Source of the DNA: a virus
Taxonomy: Duplodnaviria; Heunggongvirae; Uroviricota; Caudoviricetes
Direction: 5' to 3' (one strand)
Length of the DNA: 12,607 nt
Virus record (IMG/VR): IMGVR_UViG_2695420412_000012
Under the pieces are notes generated by a model. That model saw nothing but the letters and a program-made list of their open reading frames with translations. It made no database searches and was not told the origin of the DNA. The position numbers were made by a program, and so were the translations under genes. Every line of letters starts with the position of its first letter. Within the stretch, counting starts at the first letter, position 1. This document shows, piece after piece, positions 1,264 to 8,949 of the stretch.

Positions 1264-2085
1264 CTATCTGGTCACCTTTTTCAGTTGTTGTTCTGCCCAT
1301 GCTTCTTCAATATCAAACTGCACCACCAGCGTATCGTAAAAACGTTTAACTGTTTTTTTCCATGTATCAAGAGATATGGCATCGGTTACATTACATATGG
1401 CATTAAATGCCTCCGTTGAAGGTAATCTTTCATAGCCACGACCACCACAACGCTGGCAGTCTCTGATAACAGGCATACCACGTTTTACCGACTCTTCACG
1501 ATGAATGGCAACACCGCGCCCACGACAATCTTTACAGGCGGTGGAAACCTCCCCCTTCCCTCCACACTCCGGACAGGCAACTTTTACCACCTCCCTGACT
1601 TTTTTCCATTCCTCCCAGTAAGACGGATACACGCCTTTTGTGCACTTTGCCCACACTGGCGGCTTACCATCCGGATACTGGATCTTGTTTGTAAAAACCT
1701 CGCTTTCAATAAATTTTTTTCCGTGACAACAGGGGCACTGTTTTTTGCTCGCCGCGCTACGGGCATAATCTTCAAACGCATACGAAGCCATAATACGCAT
1801 CACTGCCGGTTTTATTTCTGCCGGGAGTTTTCTTAACGCCGCCACGCGATCACACCGACTGAGTGCATATTCTGTCAGCAATTCTGTTGCCCGCTCTCTG
1901 TCATTCATACTAATGCCCATTTTCCCAAGGAACGCAGAAAACCCCATCTCAGCCCAATTCTGTGTCATGCCCTGCGCGGCCATCACATCAGTGATACTCA
2001 GCGTATCTTTCGACGTTGAGGCCGATGCATCAGTCAGGCCGAGGGATTTTGGGGAGTAGTATTTCGGTAAATCTTCCAGTTTCAT
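1264..2085 (-). CDS. Q: Late-gene antiterminator Q (lambda Q family, 273 aa, with multiple CxxC zinc-binding pairs)
   Basis: ATG at 2083-2085. N-terminus ...YSPKS...TDVMAAQGM... and C-terminus ...LPSTEAFNAI...VKRFYDTLVVQ parallel lambda Q. Cys pairs CPCCHG, CPECGG, CKDCRG, CQRCGG. Followed by the pR'-like promoter. Confidence 0.9.
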   Translation of the reverse strand: MKLEDLPKYYSPKSLGLTDASASTSKDTLSITDVMAAQGMTQNWAEMGFSAFLGKMGISMNDRERATELLTEYALSRCDRVAALRKLPAEIKPAVMRIMASYAFEDYARSAASKKQCPCCHGKKFIESEVFTNKIQYPDGKPPVWAKCTKGVYPSYWEEWKKVREVVKVACPECGGKGEVSTACKDCRGRGVAIHREESVKRGMPVIRDCQRCGGRGYERLPSTEAFNAICNVTDAISLDTWKKTVKRFYDTLVVQFDIEEAWAEQQLKKVTR

Positions 2086-2456
2086 TTTTTGACCTGCCCT
2101 TCAAGCATTATGGGGTAAATCTTCCCCCCCAGACGTCCACCAGATACTGGCTGACCACGAACGATATTGATTTCATCAAACTGCTCATCGTCCATTAACA
2201 CTCCCGCATGCGTCAGCGCATCCAGCGGTGCTTTCAGGATATTGTCCAGGTCGCGACGACGCTTATCCGGTGGCTCCACAATAATCCTGATCGCCAGCCT
2301 TCCGGACAGATTTAATTTCAGTCGCTGCTGGCGAACAATAAGCGCCACATCACGGCGATAACGCTCACCGGCTTTTGATACAAAATATGTGCTGCCACGA
2401 CGTCGCCAGTAGGTGTTCACCGTCGGCGGGTAAGGCAAAACAAACTCTATACGCAT
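2082..2456 (-). CDS. rusA: RusA Holliday-junction resolvase (124 aa)
   Basis: ATG at 2454-2456. Motif [15 protein letters not shown] ... [30 protein letters not shown] is typical of the RusA family. Its stop overlaps the Q start (ATGA). Confidence 0.9.
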   Translation of the reverse strand: MRIEFVLPYPPTVNTYWRRRGSTYFVSKAGERYRRDVALIVRQQRLKLNLSGRLAIRIIVEPPDKRRRDLDNILKAPLDALTHAGVLMDDEQFDEINIVRGQPVSGGRLGGKIYPIMLEGQVKK

Positions 2457-2468
2457 CAGTAACCCCTT

Positions 2469-3500
2469 TTACCCAAGCACGCCGGTTGCAAAGGCGTGAT
2501 CAAGAAAACGAAAAATTAAATCAACCTGAGAACCATGCTTTTCTTCGAACGCCAGCGGATCCGCATGAAGCTCGTTGTGATGCTCCCGACACAGCGGTAG
2601 CGTGAAAATATCGTGGGATTTTGTTCCCATTCCGCCCTGACCATGACCAATCAGGTGATGGGGATCGTCGGCTGGCTTACTACAACACGCACACGGCTGT
2701 GTCTTCACCCAGCGTGTGTATTTCTCGTTAACCCAGCGGCGACGTTTAGGTCGTTTCATGAAAGATTCCGGAGACTCAGGATCAACGGCAATGCTGACCA
2801 CCGTCTTTTCCTGTGGTGGGTTCTGTTGCTGGTGGGCGTGAGGCAGCGGCGCAAGATTTTTTGTGCGCTGTTTCAGTATGCTGGTGGCGGTCTGCTCTCC
2901 CGGTACGATGTCGCTTTCACGGTACATTGAGCGGATTTTTTCTGCACGCAACCCCAGCGAACGACGTAATACCGCTTCCGGTAGCGCGTCCGCCACCTGA
3001 TTGCGGACCGCCCACCAGGATAATTCAGCCAAAGATAATTCACGCTCCTGCGTACCGCTTATTGCGTGACCAGGCGGCTTACCATCCGGATACTGGATCT
3101 TGTTTGTAAAAACCTCGCTTTCAATAAATTTTTTTCCGTGACAACAGGGGCACTGTTTTTTGCTCGCCGCGCTACGGGCATAATCTTCAAACGCATACGA
3201 AGCCATAATACGCATCACTGCCGGTTTTATTTCTGCCGGGAGTTTTCTTAACGCCGCCACGCGATCACACCGACTGAGTGCATATTCTGTCAGCAATTCT
3301 GTTGCCCGCTCTCTGTCATTCATACTAATGCCCATTTTCCCAAGGAACGCAGAAAACCCCATCTCAGCCCAATTCTGTGTCATGCCCTGCGCGGCCATCA
3401 CATCAGTGATACTCAGCGTATCTTTCGACGTTGAGGCCGATGCATCAGTCAGGCCGAGGGATTTTGGGGAGTAGTATTTCGGTAAATCTTCCAGTTTCAT
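2469..3500 (-). CDS. Chimeric in-frame ORF: Q N-terminal 143 codons fused to the C-terminal ~200 codons of the YdfU-like protein
   Basis: 3072-3500 matches the 5' part of Q at 1657-2085; 2469-3071 matches the 3' part of the 349-aa gene at 6204-6806. The breakpoint is at 3071/3072 (gtgacc|aggcggcttacc). The 343-aa ORF reads through it. Confidence 0.7.
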   Translation of the reverse strand: MKLEDLPKYYSPKSLGLTDASASTSKDTLSITDVMAAQGMTQNWAEMGFSAFLGKMGISMNDRERATELLTEYALSRCDRVAALRKLPAEIKPAVMRIMASYAFEDYARSAASKKQCPCCHGKKFIESEVFTNKIQYPDGKPPGHAISGTQERELSLAELSWWAVRNQVADALPEAVLRRSLGLRAEKIRSMYRESDIVPGEQTATSILKQRTKNLAPLPHAHQQQNPPQEKTVVSIAVDPESPESFMKRPKRRRWVNEKYTRWVKTQPCACCSKPADDPHHLIGHGQGGMGTKSHDIFTLPLCREHHNELHADPLAFEEKHGSQVDLIFRFLDHAFATGVLG

Positions 3501-3871
3501 TTTTTGACCTGCCCTTCAAGCATTATGGGGTAAATCTTCCCCCCCAGACGTCCACCAGATACTGGCTGACCACGAACGATATTGATTTCATCAAACTGCT
3601 CATCGTCCATTAACACTCCCGCATGCGTCAGCGCATCCAGCGGTGCTTTCAGGATATTGTCCAGGTCGCGACGACGCTTATCCGGTGGCTCTGCAATCAC
3701 CTTTATCGCCAGCCTTCCGGACAGGATTAATTTCAGCCGCTGCTGGCGAACAATAAGCGCCACAGCCCGGCGATAACGCTTTCCCTCCTCCGAGATAAAA
3801 TATGTGCTGCCACGACGTCGCCAGTAGGTGTTCACCGTTGGCGGGTAAGGTAAAACCAAATCTATGAGCAT
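3497..3871 (-). CDS. rusA: RusA resolvase, divergent copy (124 aa, MLIDLVLPYPP...)
   Basis: ATG at 3869-3871. Same family motifs as the other two copies but with several substitutions (N-terminus, IKVIAEPP, KRYRRAVALIV). Confidence 0.9.
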   Translation of the reverse strand: MLIDLVLPYPPTVNTYWRRRGSTYFISEEGKRYRRAVALIVRQQRLKLILSGRLAIKVIAEPPDKRRRDLDNILKAPLDALTHAGVLMDDEQFDEINIVRGQPVSGGRLGGKIYPIMLEGQVKK

Positions 3872-3883
3872 CAGTCACCTCTT

Positions 3884-4933
3884 TTACCCAAGCACGCCAG
3901 TTGCAAAGGCGTGATCAAGAAAACGAAAAATTAAATCAACCTGAGAGCCATGCTTTTCTTCGAACGCCAGCGGATCCGCATGAAGCTCGTTGTGATGCTC
4001 CCGACACAGCGGTAGCGTGAAAATATCGTGAGATTTTGTCCCCATTCCGCCCTGACCATGACCAATCAGGTGATGGGGATCGTCGGCTGGCTTACCACAA
4101 CACGCACACGGCTGAGTCTTCACCCAGCGTGTGTATTTCTCGTTAACCCAGCGGCGACGTTTAGGTCGTTTCATGAAAGATTCCGGAGACTCAGGATCAA
4201 CGGCAATGCTGACCACCGTCTTTTCCTGTGGTGGGTTCTGTTGCTGGTGGGCGTGAGGCAACGGTGCAAGATTTTTTGTGCGCTGTTTCAATATGCTGGT
4301 GGCGGTCTGCTCTCCCGGTACGATGTCGCTTTCGCGGTACACCGAGCAGATTTTTTCCGCTGGTAATCCCAGCGAGCGACGTAATACCGCTTCCGGTAGC
4401 GCGTCCGCCAGCTGATTGCGGACCGCCCACCAGGATAATTCAGCCAGAGATAATTCACGCTCCTGCGTACCGCTTATTGCGTGACCGATGACGTCAATCA
4501 TCCATGCTGACAGGTTTTGATGAGCAAGTTGCTCGAGTGATTCGGATGTCTGGTCACGCAGCTGGTTGTCGCAGTGCCAGCACAACACCATTGCGCCGGT
4601 ACCATATCGGTGAATAACGGTTTCGCTGTGATGATAATCGCCGTGTGGCCACTGGCAGGATTTAATATGGCGCAACAGCCAGTCAGACAATGCACCAGCA
4701 CCACCAGCAGCACGAATTACCCGTGCGTTACTGAAAAACGGCAGCAATGTTTTGTCTTCCACCAGCGGCTGGCGAACGGCAGGAACGACCCCGGACGGCA
4801 GATTACGCATGCTTTTCGGTTCCGGCTCCACCAGTAACCGGGTATTGTGGAATACCGGCATGGATTCACGGCCCGGCTTAACGATCACCAGCCCGAGTTC
4901 CGGTACCAGAACAGGTCGAAGTAATACCCGCAC
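3884..4933 (-). CDS. YdfU-like 349-aa protein with two Cys/His clusters (DUF968-type, putative HNH-like nuclease), divergent copy
   Basis: GTG at 4931-4933 with GGAGG 4 nt upstream. Cys/His clusters CQWPHGDYHH...CWHCDN and CACC...HHLIGHGQGG...CREHHNELH. Length and position (between a small gene and rusA/Q) match Qin prophage YdfU as I recall it. Confidence 0.8.
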   Translation of the reverse strand: MRVLLRPVLVPELGLVIVKPGRESMPVFHNTRLLVEPEPKSMRNLPSGVVPAVRQPLVEDKTLLPFFSNARVIRAAGGAGALSDWLLRHIKSCQWPHGDYHHSETVIHRYGTGAMVLCWHCDNQLRDQTSESLEQLAHQNLSAWMIDVIGHAISGTQERELSLAELSWWAVRNQLADALPEAVLRRSLGLPAEKICSVYRESDIVPGEQTATSILKQRTKNLAPLPHAHQQQNPPQEKTVVSIAVDPESPESFMKRPKRRRWVNEKYTRWVKTQPCACCGKPADDPHHLIGHGQGGMGTKSHDIFTLPLCREHHNELHADPLAFEEKHGSQVDLIFRFLDHAFATGVLG

Positions 4934-4934
4934 G

Positions 4935-5213
4935 TTACCTCCAGATGCGTTGCTGGAATGTGCGGGACGGACGCGGTGGGCGTTCGGAGTAAGGAAGCCT
5001 GACGGAGATTATCCAGTGACGGTAGTCGAGGCTAAGGGCTTTTTTAACCTCGTATCCGCGCCTGCGGTAACACTGAATTATCCATTCAGCCTGCTCTTCA
5101 GTGCATGGTGGATGCTGGAACCAGTCCGATTTGAATGCATGAAAACGCCGTCCGCACCTGCTGGCAAAGACGGCAGAATCATCAGAATTGTGTAATTTGG
5201 TATCGTGCGCCAT
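4935..5213 (-). CDS. Small protein (92 aa, MAHDTKLHNSDD...) in the position of Qin rem
   Basis: ATG at 5211-5213. Its stop abuts the GTG of the 349-aa gene. Second copy at 7255-7527. The longer 129-aa track ORF is an upstream extension without support. Confidence 0.55.
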   Translation of the reverse strand: MAHDTKLHNSDDSAVFASRCGRRFHAFKSDWFQHPPCTEEQAEWIIQCYRRRGYEVKKALSLDYRHWIISVRLPYSERPPRPSRTFQQRIWR

Positions 5214-5399
5214 CGGTTGTCTCTTCTGGCGCAGCAGGTGCCAGTTGTTCAGGCTGGCGTATAAAGTATAAATAAACTGGTTCCAGTGTAAAGCCCCTAC
5301 ATTAATGGAATAAAAGTCAAACAACAGATTGCTGGGATAAACACAACGCTTATTATTAAAAGCGATTAGATAAATTAAATTTTAATGTTATGCAATTTT

Positions 5400-5570
5400 A
5401 GGTAATGACTCCAACTTATTGATAGTGTTTTATGTTCAGATAATGCCCGATGACTTTGTCATGCAGCTCCACCGATTTTGAGAACGACAGCGACTTCCGT
5501 CCCAGCCGTGCCAGGTGCTGCCTCAGATTCAGGTTATGCCGCTCAATTCGCTGCGTATATCGCTTGCTGA
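5400..5570 (-). mobile_element. insB: IS1 remnant: right terminal inverted repeat plus the 3' end of insB, 171 bp
   Basis: ggtaatgactccaacttattgatagtg... is the IS1 terminal IR. The encoded tail ...[47 protein letters not shown] is the InsB C-terminus. IS1 identity stops at 5570, where Q sequence begins. Confidence 0.9.
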
Positions 5571-5820
5571 ACGCCGCCACACGATCGCACCGACTGAGTG
5601 CATAATCTGCCAGTAATTCTGTTGCCCGCGCCCTGTCATTCATACTGATGCCCATTTTCCCCAGGAACGCAGAAAACCCCATCTCAGCCCGATTCTGTGT
5701 CATGCCCTGCGCGGCCATCACATCAGTGATACTCAGCGCATCTTTTGACGTTGAGGCCGATGCATCGGTCAGGCAAGGGGATTTTGGGGAGTAGTATTTC
5801 GGTAAATCTTCCAGTTTCAT
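5416..5820 (-). pseudogene. Truncated Q (first ~83 codons, divergent allele) fused in frame to the insB 3' end
   Basis: 134-aa ORF: [30 protein letters not shown]...SRCDRVAA then IS1-derived [14 protein letters not shown].... Junction at 5570/5571. Confidence 0.85.
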
Positions 5821-6191
5821 TTTTTGACCTGCTCTTCATGCATTATGGGGTAAATCTTCACCCCCAGACGTCCACCAGATACTGGCTGACCACGAACGAT
5901 ATTGATTTCATCAAACTGCTCATCGTCCATTAACACTCCCGCATGCGTCAGCGCATCCAGCGGTGCTTTCAGGATATTGTCCAGGTCGCGACGACGCTTA
6001 TCCGGTGGCTCCACAATAATCCTGATCGCCAGCCTTCCGGACAGATTTAATTTCAGTCGCTGCTGGCGAACAATAAGCGCCACATCACGGCGATAACGCT
6101 CACCGGCTTTTGATACAAAATATGTGCTGCCACGACGTCGCCAGTAGGTGTTCACCGTCGGCGGGTAAGGCAAAACAAACTCTATACGCAT
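5817..6191 (-). CDS. rusA: RusA resolvase (124 aa)
   Basis: Almost identical to 2082-2456 except at the 3' end ([15 protein letters not shown]), where the overlapping Q allele differs. Confidence 0.9.
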
Positions 6192-6203
6192 CAGTAACCC
6201 CTT

Positions 6204-7253
6204 TTACCCAAGCACGCCGGTTGCAAAGGCGTGATCAAGAAAACGAAAAATTAAATCAACCTGAGAACCATGCTTTTCTTCGAACGCCAGCGGATCCGCA
6301 TGAAGCTCGTTGTGATGCTCCCGACACAGCGGTAGCGTGAAAATATCGTGGGATTTTGTTCCCATTCCGCCCTGACCATGACCAATCAGGTGATGGGGAT
6401 CGTCGGCTGGCTTACTACAACACGCACACGGCTGTGTCTTCACCCAGCGTGTGTATTTCTCGTTAACCCAGCGGCGACGTTTAGGTCGTTTCATGAAAGA
6501 TTCCGGAGACTCAGGATCAACGGCAATGCTGACCACCGTCTTTTCCTGTGGTGGGTTCTGTTGCTGGTGGGCGTGAGGCAGCGGCGCAAGATTTTTTGTG
6601 CGCTGTTTCAGTATGCTGGTGGCGGTCTGCTCTCCCGGTACGATGTCGCTTTCACGGTACATTGAGCGGATTTTTTCTGCACGCAACCCCAGCGAACGAC
6701 GTAATACCGCTTCCGGTAGCGCGTCCGCCACCTGATTGCGGACCGCCCACCAGGATAATTCAGCCAAAGATAATTCACGCTCCTGCGTACCGCTTATTGC
6801 GTGACCGATGACGTCAATCATCCATGCTGACAAGTTTTGGTGAGCAAGTTGCTCAAGTGATTCTGAGGTCTGGTCACGCAACTGGTTGTCGCAGTGCCAG
6901 CACAACACCATTGCGCCGGTACCATAACGGTGAATGACGGTTTCACTGTGGTGATAATCACCGTGTGGCCACTGGCAGGATTTAATATGGCGCAACAGCC
7001 AGTCAGACAGTGCACCAGCGCCGCCAGCAGCACGAATCACACGCTCATTGCTGAAAAATGGCAGTAATGATTTATCCTCCGCCAGCGGCTGGCGAACGGC
7101 AGGGACGACTCCGGATGGCAGGCCGCACATGCTTTTCGGTTCCGGCTCCACCAGCACTCGAGGATTATGAAATATCTGTATGGATTCACGGCCCGGCTTA
7201 AGGACCACCAGCCCAAGCTCAGGCACCAGAACAGGTCTAAGTAATACCCGCAC
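6204..7253 (-). CDS. YdfU-like 349-aa Cys/His-rich protein (DUF968-type, putative HNH-like nuclease)
   Basis: Full-length copy. Its 3' 600 bp is identical to 2469-3071. Confidence 0.8.
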   Translation of the reverse strand: MRVLLRPVLVPELGLVVLKPGRESIQIFHNPRVLVEPEPKSMCGLPSGVVPAVRQPLAEDKSLLPFFSNERVIRAAGGAGALSDWLLRHIKSCQWPHGDYHHSETVIHRYGTGAMVLCWHCDNQLRDQTSESLEQLAHQNLSAWMIDVIGHAISGTQERELSLAELSWWAVRNQVADALPEAVLRRSLGLRAEKIRSMYRESDIVPGEQTATSILKQRTKNLAPLPHAHQQQNPPQEKTVVSIAVDPESPESFMKRPKRRRWVNEKYTRWVKTQPCACCSKPADDPHHLIGHGQGGMGTKSHDIFTLPLCREHHNELHADPLAFEEKHGSQVDLIFRFLDHAFATGVLG

Positions 7254-7597: not shown

Positions 7598-7626
7598 GGA
7601 AAAAACAAAACCCGCCGAAGCGGGTT
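7598..7626 (-). terminator. Rho-independent terminator downstream of hok (aacccgc-cgaa-gcgggtt then T-rich tract on the minus strand)
   Basis: Perfect 7-bp stem at 7609-7626. The + strand A-rich run at 7598-7610 becomes the T-run for minus transcripts. Confidence 0.65.
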
Positions 7627-7694
7627 AAGTGCGGGTGCGTTGAGGATGCCTGACACATCAGAGGTGGCGAGGGATTTCTCCCCCGCCAGGTCTC

Positions 7695-7850
7695 TTACTC
7701 CTCAGGTTCGTAAGCTGTGAAGACAGCGACCTCCGTCTGGCCGGTTCGGATTCGTACCTCGCAGAGGTCTTTCCTCGTTACCAGTGCCGTCACTATGACG
7801 GTTAAACAGATGACGATCAGGGCGATTAACATCGCCTTTTGCTGCTTCAT
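7695..7850 (-). CDS. hok: Hok-family membrane toxin (51 aa, HokD/RelF-like)
   Basis: MKQQKAMLIALIVICLTVIVTALVTRKDLCEVRIRTGQTEVAVFTAYEPEE shows the Hok signature (TM helix, TRKxLCE, EVAxFxAYE). AAGGAG lies 9 nt upstream. An in-frame upstream ATG at 7905-7907 would give a 70-codon mok-like extension. Confidence 0.9.
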   Translation of the reverse strand: MKQQKAMLIALIVICLTVIVTALVTRKDLCEVRIRTGQTEVAVFTAYEPEE

Positions 7851-8109
7851 AGCCTGCTTCTCCTTGCCTTTCGGCACGTAAGAGGCTAACCTAGATTTGC
7901 CGTTCATAGATTGAGCCTCAGATTAATGTTAAGCGTCTTGCAGGACGCGTAATGTTAACTGGGGCTTTTCTCTATCTGCCTTTTGGTGTTCATGCCTGAG
8001 ACAGATAGCCTCAAGCACCCGCAGTCATTCTACTTAACTAAGATTTCCCCGCAAACCGTTTTTGTCCGGCACAGTAAATATCCAACTAAACCAATGGCGT
8101 TCGCTGTAT

Positions 8110-8289
8110 TTACCGCCAGTATTCAATGCACATGACCGCCATGAACACCCCTAAAAAAAGGGCATTTATATATCCAAATATTAATATCAAAACATCAACT
8201 TTTTCCATATACCTTGCTGTGAAGATGATGGGCATACATGATACGAACAACCAGAACGCAACAAACAAAAACTGCAATGCGTTTTTCAT
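8110..8289 (-). CDS. Small membrane protein (59 aa, two predicted TM segments) in an AT-rich island
   Basis: ATG at 8287-8289 preceded by AGGAGG 4 nt upstream. Sequence MKNALQFLFVAFWLFVSCMPIIFTARYMEKVDVLILIFGYINALFLGVFMAVMCIEYWR. The surrounding 8100-8420 is markedly AT-rich. Confidence 0.5.
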   Translation of the reverse strand: MKNALQFLFVAFWLFVSCMPIIFTARYMEKVDVLILIFGYINALFLGVFMAVMCIEYWR

Positions 8290-8459
8290 TATTCCTCCTA
8301 CAATCAATGTGCAATTACATTTAAACACACCTCAATTTGGCCGGACATATAAATATCTAAACCAGAAAAAATCACTTACATAGCGTTACAAACTCTTTAG
8401 TCTAAATATTCATCGTAAAACATTCCCCATACTTATCAGCCCGTTCTGCGCCAGGTAGC

Positions 8460-8776
8460 TCATTGCCTTATCTGGGAATCTGTAATCAGGTTTCCGGATG
8501 CTGGTGGATTTTCGCGTTTTAGTTGTTCATAAAAGTGCACAGCTTTAACCAGTTCTTCTGATGTAACCGGGACTGGCGGGGCAGTGAATAAGGCCTGAAT
8601 TTCATAGTTCGGCCTGTCGTTACAATCCTCTTTTTTCGGTACATATTTCCAGTCACCAGACCACTACTTCCCCTGAAAGTCCGTAACGCCTTTTTTTTCA
8701 CGTAGCGATATCGCCATGCCACTGTTTTTGCTTGCCCCGCCGTTTCATGCCCTTCCTGATAATTAACCTCGCTCAT
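8460..8776 (-). pseudogene. Apparently frameshifted gene (about 110 aa if repaired) with the shift at a T6 homopolymer (8631-8636)
   Basis: Frame 1 gives MSEVNYQEGHETAGQAKTVAWRYRYVKKKALRTFRGSSGLVTGN then low-complexity sequence. The alternative frame after the A6/T6 run gives a protein-like tail ...EDCNDRPNYEIQALFTAPPVPVTSEELVKAVHFYEQLKRENPPASGNLITDSQIRQ* ending at 8460. Confidence 0.3.
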
Positions 8777-8949
8777 TCATCGCCCCACTCATCACAATAT
8801 GCTTCGACCGGAGTTTTTCCTGCTTCATAATCATCACGCCATGCTTCAGCATCAGCAGCACTGCCACCACGTAACTCTGCATAGTCCATTAACAGTTCAT
8901 GCCATTCTTCAAAACTGACGTTGTATTTAGTTGAACCAAAATCAGCCAT
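8773..8949 (-). CDS. Small acidic protein (58 aa, MADFGSTKYNVSFEEWHELLMDYAELRGGSAADAEAWRDDYEAGKTPVEAYCDEWGDE)
   Basis: Hand-translated. Its ATG overlaps the stop of the upstream acidic ORF (ATGGCTGA), suggesting translational coupling. Confidence 0.45.
   Translation of the reverse strand: MADFGSTKYNVSFEEWHELLMDYAELRGGSAADAEAWRDDYEAGKTPVEAYCDEWGDE

Follow-up and report, generated by a model that had tools for sequence, protein, structure and literature searches.

Several described classes of small phage-encoded proteins can be compared with the gene presented in this study, a 59-codon open reading frame (ORF59) of an Escherichia coli prophage. A phage moron in the strict sense of Hendrix and Juhala possesses its own promoter and terminator, as outlined in a review (PMC3594210). 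ORF59 resembles the morons of that review in being one small, presumably non-essential gene on a short insert of deviant composition, which is variably present between conserved genes; it differs from them in having no detectable flanking promoter or terminator and in being co-directional inside the early-right operon.

The Hok/Gef proteins (PF01848) are likewise small inner-membrane proteins of lambdoid prophages, encoded in an equivalent position and likely made upon induction. In phage Sp5, the prophage hokW-sokW locus is switched on by RecA-dependent induction, and HokW increases phage release (PMC8621323). Hok, however, has one transmembrane (TM) helix followed by a cysteine-bearing periplasmic tail and is under mok/sok/fbi RNA control, whereas ORF59 has two predicted helices, and starts at an ATG behind a plain Shine-Dalgarno sequence; conserved RNA structure is lacking, and Pfam gave no match for it. 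The GhoT/OrtT proteins (PF10753), at 57 aa against the 59 aa of ORF59, also have two predicted TM helices and are very hydrophobic; unlike them, ORF59 has no Pfam match and no evident cognate antitoxin or regulator. Class II holins and pinholins of lambdoid phages share with ORF59 the predicted two-helix N-in/C-in hairpin and a length of about 60–70 aa, but ORF59 lies outside the lysis cassette (in matching genomes, the holin and lysozyme genes are several kb beyond Q), lacks the dual-start motif, and has no Pfam or PHROG holin match. In addition, class II holins carry a highly charged C-terminal tail, whereas ORF59 ends in only IEYWR, with the charges E56 and R59. Finally, the superinfection-exclusion proteins T4 Imm and HK97 gp15 are small phage-encoded integral membrane proteins, as predicted for ORF59, which has no detected homology to them and is sited outside the immunity region.

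Gene neighbourhood and the cassette carrying ORF59

The window, that is, the whole stretch of 12,607 nucleotides analysed in this study, corresponds to the early-right arm of a lambdoid prophage from E. coli, and all of its genes lie on the minus strand. The gene order is Cro/CI-like, YdaT-like, replication O-like, DUF977, small nin-type genes, DUF7167, a frameshifted gene, ORF59, and then hok/sok, continuing with rem-like, DUF968, RusA, and Q genes. The features around ORF59 are as follows.

8410..8776, minus strand: upstream gene, frameshifted at an A8 run (8691–8698); PGAP treats it as a pseudogene ("frameshifted; internal stop") in E. coli loci identical to this one
8068..8409: AT-rich accessory cassette carrying ORF59 (342 bp, 35.4% GC), bounded by composition and by comparison with the related prophages L090 and L091
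8110..8289, minus strand: ORF59, 59 codons, ATG 8289..8287 and TAA 8112..8110, encoding a predicted two-helix inner-membrane protein
8032..8027, minus strand: −10 element TAGAAT of the putative hok promoter, assigned from the sequence
7845..8020, minus strand: region of the hok mRNA leader and sok, directly following the cassette (full-length match to Rfam RF01794 at 112 bits)
7907..7695, minus strand: mok, with hok at 7850..7695 on the same strand (Pfam HOK_GEF, E = 3e-23)

Intact versions of the upstream gene, encoding 129–141 aa, occur in L093 and L090, and the hok gene is annotated as hokD by PGAP in loci identical to that of the window. The hok −35 element follows about 55 nt after the end of ORF59. 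Rfam over the whole window, together with a permissive scan of 7600–8900, returned nothing within the cassette and only the hok/sok leader RNA adjoining it. Elsewhere in the window, downstream of Q, Rfam identified the AgvB (anti-GcvB) sRNA at 240–301 on the plus strand (96 bits) and STnc100 at 302–492 on the minus strand (146 bits).

The DUF968 and RusA gene pair is present three times in tandem in the window (ORFs 2082–3500, 3497–4933, and 5817–7253), and only one such pair occurs in the complete genomes that match best. The segments 1658–2128 and 3073–3543 are 100% identical at a spacing of 1415 bp and give rise to a chimeric minus-strand ORF (2469..3500), in which the N-terminus of Q is fused to the C-terminal part of DUF968. 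A third copy of the repeat (5564–5863) is 93% identical and adjoins a truncated Q-like ORF (5416..5820). This triplicated region could reflect recombination between prophages or an assembly artefact.

The original prediction had regarded the region as an AT-rich moron. The deviant composition was confirmed, since the GC content is 35–38% in 200-nt windows across 8100–8500 against about 45–57% on either side. The cassette edges are also sharp: one directly follows the stop (8412..8410) that terminates the upstream gene, and about 13 nt separate the other from the hok −35 element. In the related prophage L090, the match with the window breaks off after 8067 and resumes at 8410, with 74 nt replacing 8068–8409, and L091 carries other cargo of 699 nt between 8044 and 8501. 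In the O157-type prophage L094, nothing but the side of the hok promoter is retained, and a DUF551 gene precedes it. The flanks are 79–98% identical among prophages that differ in the presence of the cassette. This presence, absence, or replacement with sharp breakpoints means that 8068–8409 behaves as an accessory cassette in a cargo-exchanging slot. Thus, the composition and the exchangeable nature expected of a moron were found, but neither a promoter of its own above shuffles nor a terminator before hok.

The slot between the nin-type early genes and hok/sok in lambdoid prophages of E. coli and Shigella is a variable, cargo-swapping hotspot, in which ORF59, an 87-aa protein (L091), a 27-codon mini-ORF (L090), and relBE, which occupies it in the K-12 Qin prophage, appear as alternative cargoes. 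A relB gene was also seen near the slot in L003 and L005. Regarding these other cargoes, the L091 segment (42% GC) encodes at 1705–1968 of that locus, on the minus strand, the soluble-looking hypothetical protein WP_001176099.1, which gave no PHROG match. The 74-nt filler of L090 (1668–1745, minus strand) contains the unannotated 27-codon ORF MTWPEAFTTTGIAMAVALVVYSICRWG, which has the look of a single TM helix and whose start codon overlaps the preceding stop as ATGA; the window keeps only the first three codons of this mini-ORF (ATG AAT ATT TAG).

The upstream gene of L092 and L093 shares only about 78% identity with that of the window, against about 97–98% for the cassette, which indicates a recent horizontal spread of the cassette. 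A 341-nt region is present in 1569 of 5426 complete E. coli genomes, with every copy at 95% identity or more, and also in three sequenced phages; the exact ORF59 protein is encoded on at least 1000 contigs. In 42 retrieved Qin-like loci (L003 and L005 among them), the homology with the window ends at the mok start (~7910), so that ORF59 and the hok leader remain; there, an IS-transposase fragment and an HTH gene replace the hok coding sequence.

For the expression signals, a sigma-70 consensus scan upstream of ORF59 on the minus strand gave no promoter. With a promoter position weight matrix (PWM), no candidate in either lineage of the gene (see below) exceeded the shuffles, and none stood at conserved aligned positions; the best scores were 6.7 and 6.4 against a shuffle mean best of 6.8. 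The hok promoter used as a control likewise fell within the shuffle range, so the scan has low power and ORF59 may still have a promoter of its own. On the plus strand of the cassette, no PWM candidate was above chance. No terminator or stable hairpin was found between ORF59 and hok (8015–8125), RNA folding of the ORF59 leader and of the ORF–hok spacer gave z values near 0 (between −0.35 and +0.2 for the leader), no structure beyond the shuffles, and the Shine-Dalgarno sequence was not sequestered beyond chance in the folded leader. As the neighbours are co-directional, the Shine-Dalgarno sequence is strong, and no promoter or terminator is detectable, ORF59 is most likely a product of the early-right transcript.

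Coding status of ORF59

A minus-strand ORF of 59 codons, preceded by AGGAGG at 4 nt from the ATG, had been described in the original prediction, and the sequence carries precisely this arrangement (8289..8110, with AGGAGG at 8299..8294). The translation is MKNALQFLFVAFWLFVSCMPIIFTARYMEKVDVLILIFGYINALFLGVFMAVMCIEYWR (59 aa). Three further features concern this ORF.

8294..8299, minus strand: Shine-Dalgarno sequence AGGAGG, assigned from sequence, with a 4-nt spacer (AATA) before the ATG at 8289
8153..8159, minus strand: T7 run within ORF59, the source of the frameshifted variants P0022, P0023, and locus L089
8126..8383, plus strand: antisense shadow ORF of 85 codons, whose third codon positions coincide with those of ORF59; not a gene

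The Shine-Dalgarno sequence varies in one respect: position 8296 is changed from A to G (minus strand) in L092 and L093, giving AGGGGG, and both of these loci encode the I31/M37/H40 variant of ORF59.

An exhaustive phmmer search with ORF59, covering 1.84 billion proteins, found as its only relatives a second lineage (lineage B, P0037/P0043), MRKILMYLCISIWIVISCVPIILTSEYLTEASIMALMFGHANALCIGVFISIIYIECWR, which is also 59 aa in length and aligns without gaps at 42% identity. Word-indexed searches returned only near-identical E. coli and Shigella copies of ORF59 together with frameshifted variants, and a two-lineage profile search of a 5.8-billion protein set and of metagenome contigs gave no third lineage. 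The family found is restricted to Escherichia and Shigella, with two lineages only. Lineage B also settles the start codon: a GTG at 8328 gives a 72-aa form of ORF59, used by some GenBank submitters, but the 59-aa form is the conserved one, since lineage B has an in-frame TAA 18 nt upstream of its ATG.

Lineage B is present in 1045 of the 5426 complete E. coli genomes, including JJ1886, where its ORF sits in an AT-rich unannotated prophage remnant between an integrase fragment at ttcA and uspF. In JJ1886 (L096), the remnant at 5213–6800 is deeply decayed, has about 30–33% GC, and occupies the attachment site of Rac in phylogroup B2 strains. The longest intact ORF of the remnant is that of lineage B (6230–6409), which is without PGAP annotation. 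About 55 nt downstream of this ORF lies the decayed 3' half of a hok gene, which matches at 50 of 62 nt with a score of 64 against a shuffle maximum of 27. Since ORF59 stands 5' of hok in both lineages, which have diverged to 42% protein identity, the linkage is old.

The two ORFs share 59% nucleotide identity, distributed as 58%, 71%, and 47% over codon positions 1, 2, and 3, respectively, and their comparison gives a pS of 0.70, a pN of 0.34, and a dN/dS of about 0.23. The flanks of the two lineages align only with indels, and the ORF itself without any. In neutral simulations with an equal number of random substitutions, 2.4% of the sequences remained stop-free, and none of these reached the observed pN/pS. 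As judged from these substitution patterns, the between-lineage comparison shows long-term purifying selection on the protein, and ORF59 is, on the same comparative grounds, a genuine protein-coding gene.

The opposite view, in which ORF59 is open by chance alone as part of a non-coding spacer rich in AT and biased to T (such as the upstream sequence of the hok promoter), and its hydrophobicity would merely mirror T-richness, is very improbable. An ATG ORF of at least 59 codons did arise in 15% of 5000 first-order Markov shuffles of the cassette, and RefSeq PGAP made no call in the records inspected; nevertheless, only 0.12% of the same shuffles combined such an ORF with GGAGG or AGGAG at 3–13 nt before it (P of about 0.001). 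The T-richness is also uneven across codon positions, with T at position 2 in 32 of 59 codons. Also against a chance frame, lineage B retains exactly 59 codons without gaps at the 59% nucleotide identity, and the order of identity over codon positions (2 > 1 > 3), the dN/dS, and the rarity of open frames in the simulations all contradict it.

The within-lineage polymorphism, in which most changes are non-synonymous, is the remaining point that favours a chance frame. Seven non-synonymous sites and one synonymous site segregate in ORF59 of lineage A (the lineage of the window), and three and none, respectively, in lineage B, so that in the pooled count of 10 against 1 purifying selection is not visible in present-day polymorphism. 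The substitution density of lineage A is modestly lower in the ORF (8/180 sites) than in the flanks (12/190), and that of lineage B is equal (3/180 against 3/183). As this polymorphism fits the neutral expectation and would be unlikely under a dN/dS of 0.23, the constraint on ORF59 looks relaxed in present populations. Several of the replacements, namely I37M, Y40H, and Y57C, give the residue of the other lineage.

An intact ORF59 was counted in 134 of the 136 lineage-A loci that were informative, a figure biased toward intact copies because the loci were retrieved by protein similarity, and the hok coding sequence is gone in 42 of these 134. Frameshifted copies exist, and their frameshifts cluster at the T7 run. 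Locus L089, considered as a divergent homologue ("53% identical"), was rejected as such, being a decayed copy with several frameshifts.

The original prediction had also named the plus-strand ORF 8126–8383 (85 aa) as a possible real gene in place of ORF59, and this can practically be dismissed: although no ORF in the cassette is longer and the GenBank records of three phages call it (as "hornerin" or hypothetical in vB_EcoS-640R1, vB_EcoS-813R8, and PhiR42_1), its homologous frame in lineage B contains two stop codons, its ATG has no Shine-Dalgarno sequence, it runs opposite to all neighbouring genes, it has no homologues or family matches, and its sharing of third codon positions with ORF59 is the usual frame of a shadow ORF. 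The two stops in lineage B mean that the minus-strand ORF59 is the real one and that the plus-strand ORF is its shadow.

Predicted topology and family searches

The hydropathy profile of ORF59 has two hydrophobic segments, at roughly residues 4–24 and 33–55, with a GRAVY of 1.3, and the AlphaFold2 model places helices at residues 2–24 and 31–58 with a mean pLDDT of 73. The reading of the product as a double-TM protein in the original prediction thus agrees with both analyses. In the lineage B protein, the N-terminus carries a charge of +2 and the loop one of −2, so that the positive-inside rule points to an N-in/C-in orientation. These data are consistent with a product predicted to be an N-in/C-in helical hairpin in the inner membrane, with a short periplasmic loop.

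The residues invariant between the two lineages are W13, S17, C18, P20, I21, I22, T24, L36, F38, G39, N42, A43, L44, E56, W58, and R59. They form, in the predicted structure, a polar Ser/Cys/Pro/Thr and Gly/Asn patch in the loop-proximal half of both helices, with W13 to T24 belonging to helix 1 and F38 to L44 to helix 2, and an E-x-W-R motif is conserved at the C-terminal, predicted cytoplasmic end. Polar patches in membrane proteins usually mediate helix–helix association.

The homology search that had been proposed for the protein yielded the second 59-aa lineage at 42% identity and no described family. Nothing significant was obtained for ORF59 in Pfam, PHROGs, PADLOC, or NCBIfam: Pfam gave no match at E <= 1 for ORF59, nor at E <= 10 for 11 family members, and PADLOC-DB gave 0 families at E <= 1 for ORF59. 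The below-threshold candidates DUF4212 (E = 0.03), TIGR04104, and phrog_2720/6298 were rejected as hydrophobic-composition matches. None of these family searches links ORF59 to the superinfection-exclusion, abortive-infection, or Kil-like factors considered in the original prediction. A PDB profile search with ORF59 gave 0 matches at E <= 10, and Foldseek of the hairpin model against BFVD returned generic two-helix proteins at a best E of 1.3, which is uninformative. Literature searches with ORF59 peptide strings and UniProt identifiers found 0 papers, and hok-neighbouring genes are not discussed in a survey preprint on Hok (10.1101/2025.08.07.668861). ORF59 thus belongs to no described family, and in kind it is a familiar small membrane accessory protein of prophages.

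Possible roles of ORF59

The explanation that best accounts for the whole of these data, to which we assign a probability of about 60%, is that ORF59 is a genuine gene on an accessory cassette, encoding a helical-hairpin inner-membrane protein that is expressed with the early-right genes and acts as a non-essential membrane effector. We infer this function from the position of the gene and from its residue pattern. After prophage induction, ORF59 would be translated from the early-right (nin-to-Q) transcript, which would run on into hok; the protein may then self-associate in the membrane, or dock on a host membrane protein, via its Asn/Gly/Ser/Thr face, and would subsequently act as a non-essential membrane effector. 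Within this explanation, the role ranked first, at odds clearly short of even, is that of a membrane-perturbing Kil- or Hok-like helper in lytic growth.

The role ranked second, and held with distinctly less weight, is that of a superinfection-exclusion or abortive-infection protein expressed in the lysogen, in which case ORF59 would be a true moron with a weak promoter of its own, blocking DNA entry or killing the infected cell. Such a role is in line with the small size and predicted membrane location of the protein and with its coding on a horizontally mobile, AT-rich cassette in a slot that varies between prophages, and the 120 nt of AT-rich sequence upstream could hide a non-consensus promoter. 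The persistence of an intact ORF59 in the 42 loci with a destroyed hok and in the otherwise fully decayed B2 remnant also fits a benefit to the host. However, the intactness in B2 can be explained by low divergence, the B2 polymorphism being neutral-like, and the retrieval of loci by protein similarity favoured intact copies. Exclusion genes usually sit in the lysogeny module, whereas ORF59 lies in the early-right operon and not in the immunity region. Furthermore, no promoter above chance and no terminator were detected, and the PADLOC and PHROG searches gave no match.

A GhoT/OrtT-like or type I membrane toxin, kept silent by an antisense RNA or through the structure of its mRNA, is unlikely. 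In favour of a toxin, the protein has 59 aa, is very hydrophobic, and adjoins a type I toxin locus in both lineages; another toxin–antitoxin pair, relBE, fills the same slot in Qin, and relB lies nearby in L003 and L005. On the other hand, Pfam gave no GhoT/OrtT or Hok match, the Shine-Dalgarno sequence is unsequestered with leader structure at the shuffle level, and no plus-strand promoter stood above chance. A toxin translated from an unrepressed, consensus Shine-Dalgarno sequence would be hard to maintain in 1569 genomes.

A slightly smaller chance is given to a broader proposal, in which ORF59 would be the ancient partner of hok/sok in a two-protein membrane module, or the copy in the B2 ttcA remnant would be a domesticated small protein with a host function. 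In the partner form, one induction-dependent transcript would encode both proteins, and the hairpin would tune the membrane damage driven by Hok and hence the timing of phage release. Taken strictly as a functional partner, that is, a co-transcribed membrane component tuning Hok action or lysis timing, ORF59 is a shade less probable again. The old position immediately 5' of hok in both lineages, on one strand and with no terminator between, speaks for a partnership, but this common synteny may be simple inheritance. In the related prophages L090, L091, and L094, hok occurs without ORF59, and conversely ORF59 is intact where the hok coding sequence has been lost (the 42 loci and lineage B). Plasmid hok/sok loci are not known to have a partner of this kind.

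Nothing at present indicates an unusual mechanism for ORF59. The interest of the effector proposed here lies rather in its missed or mis-stranded annotation, in the old linkage with hok in two lineages, and in its intact survival in a decayed B2 remnant. ORF59 was left unannotated by PGAP in every RefSeq record inspected, some GenBank submitters list it, with 59 or 72 aa, under the names "hypothetical" or "putative membrane protein", and in three phage records the annotation is on the wrong strand, which bears on catalogues of small proteins and on prophage annotation. ORF59 represents a conserved family of small membrane proteins; of the complete E. coli genomes, about 29% carry its own lineage and about 19% carry lineage B. 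Should ORF59 turn out to modulate the integrity of the membrane, the action of Hok, or the entry of phages, it would represent a new effector of compact size.
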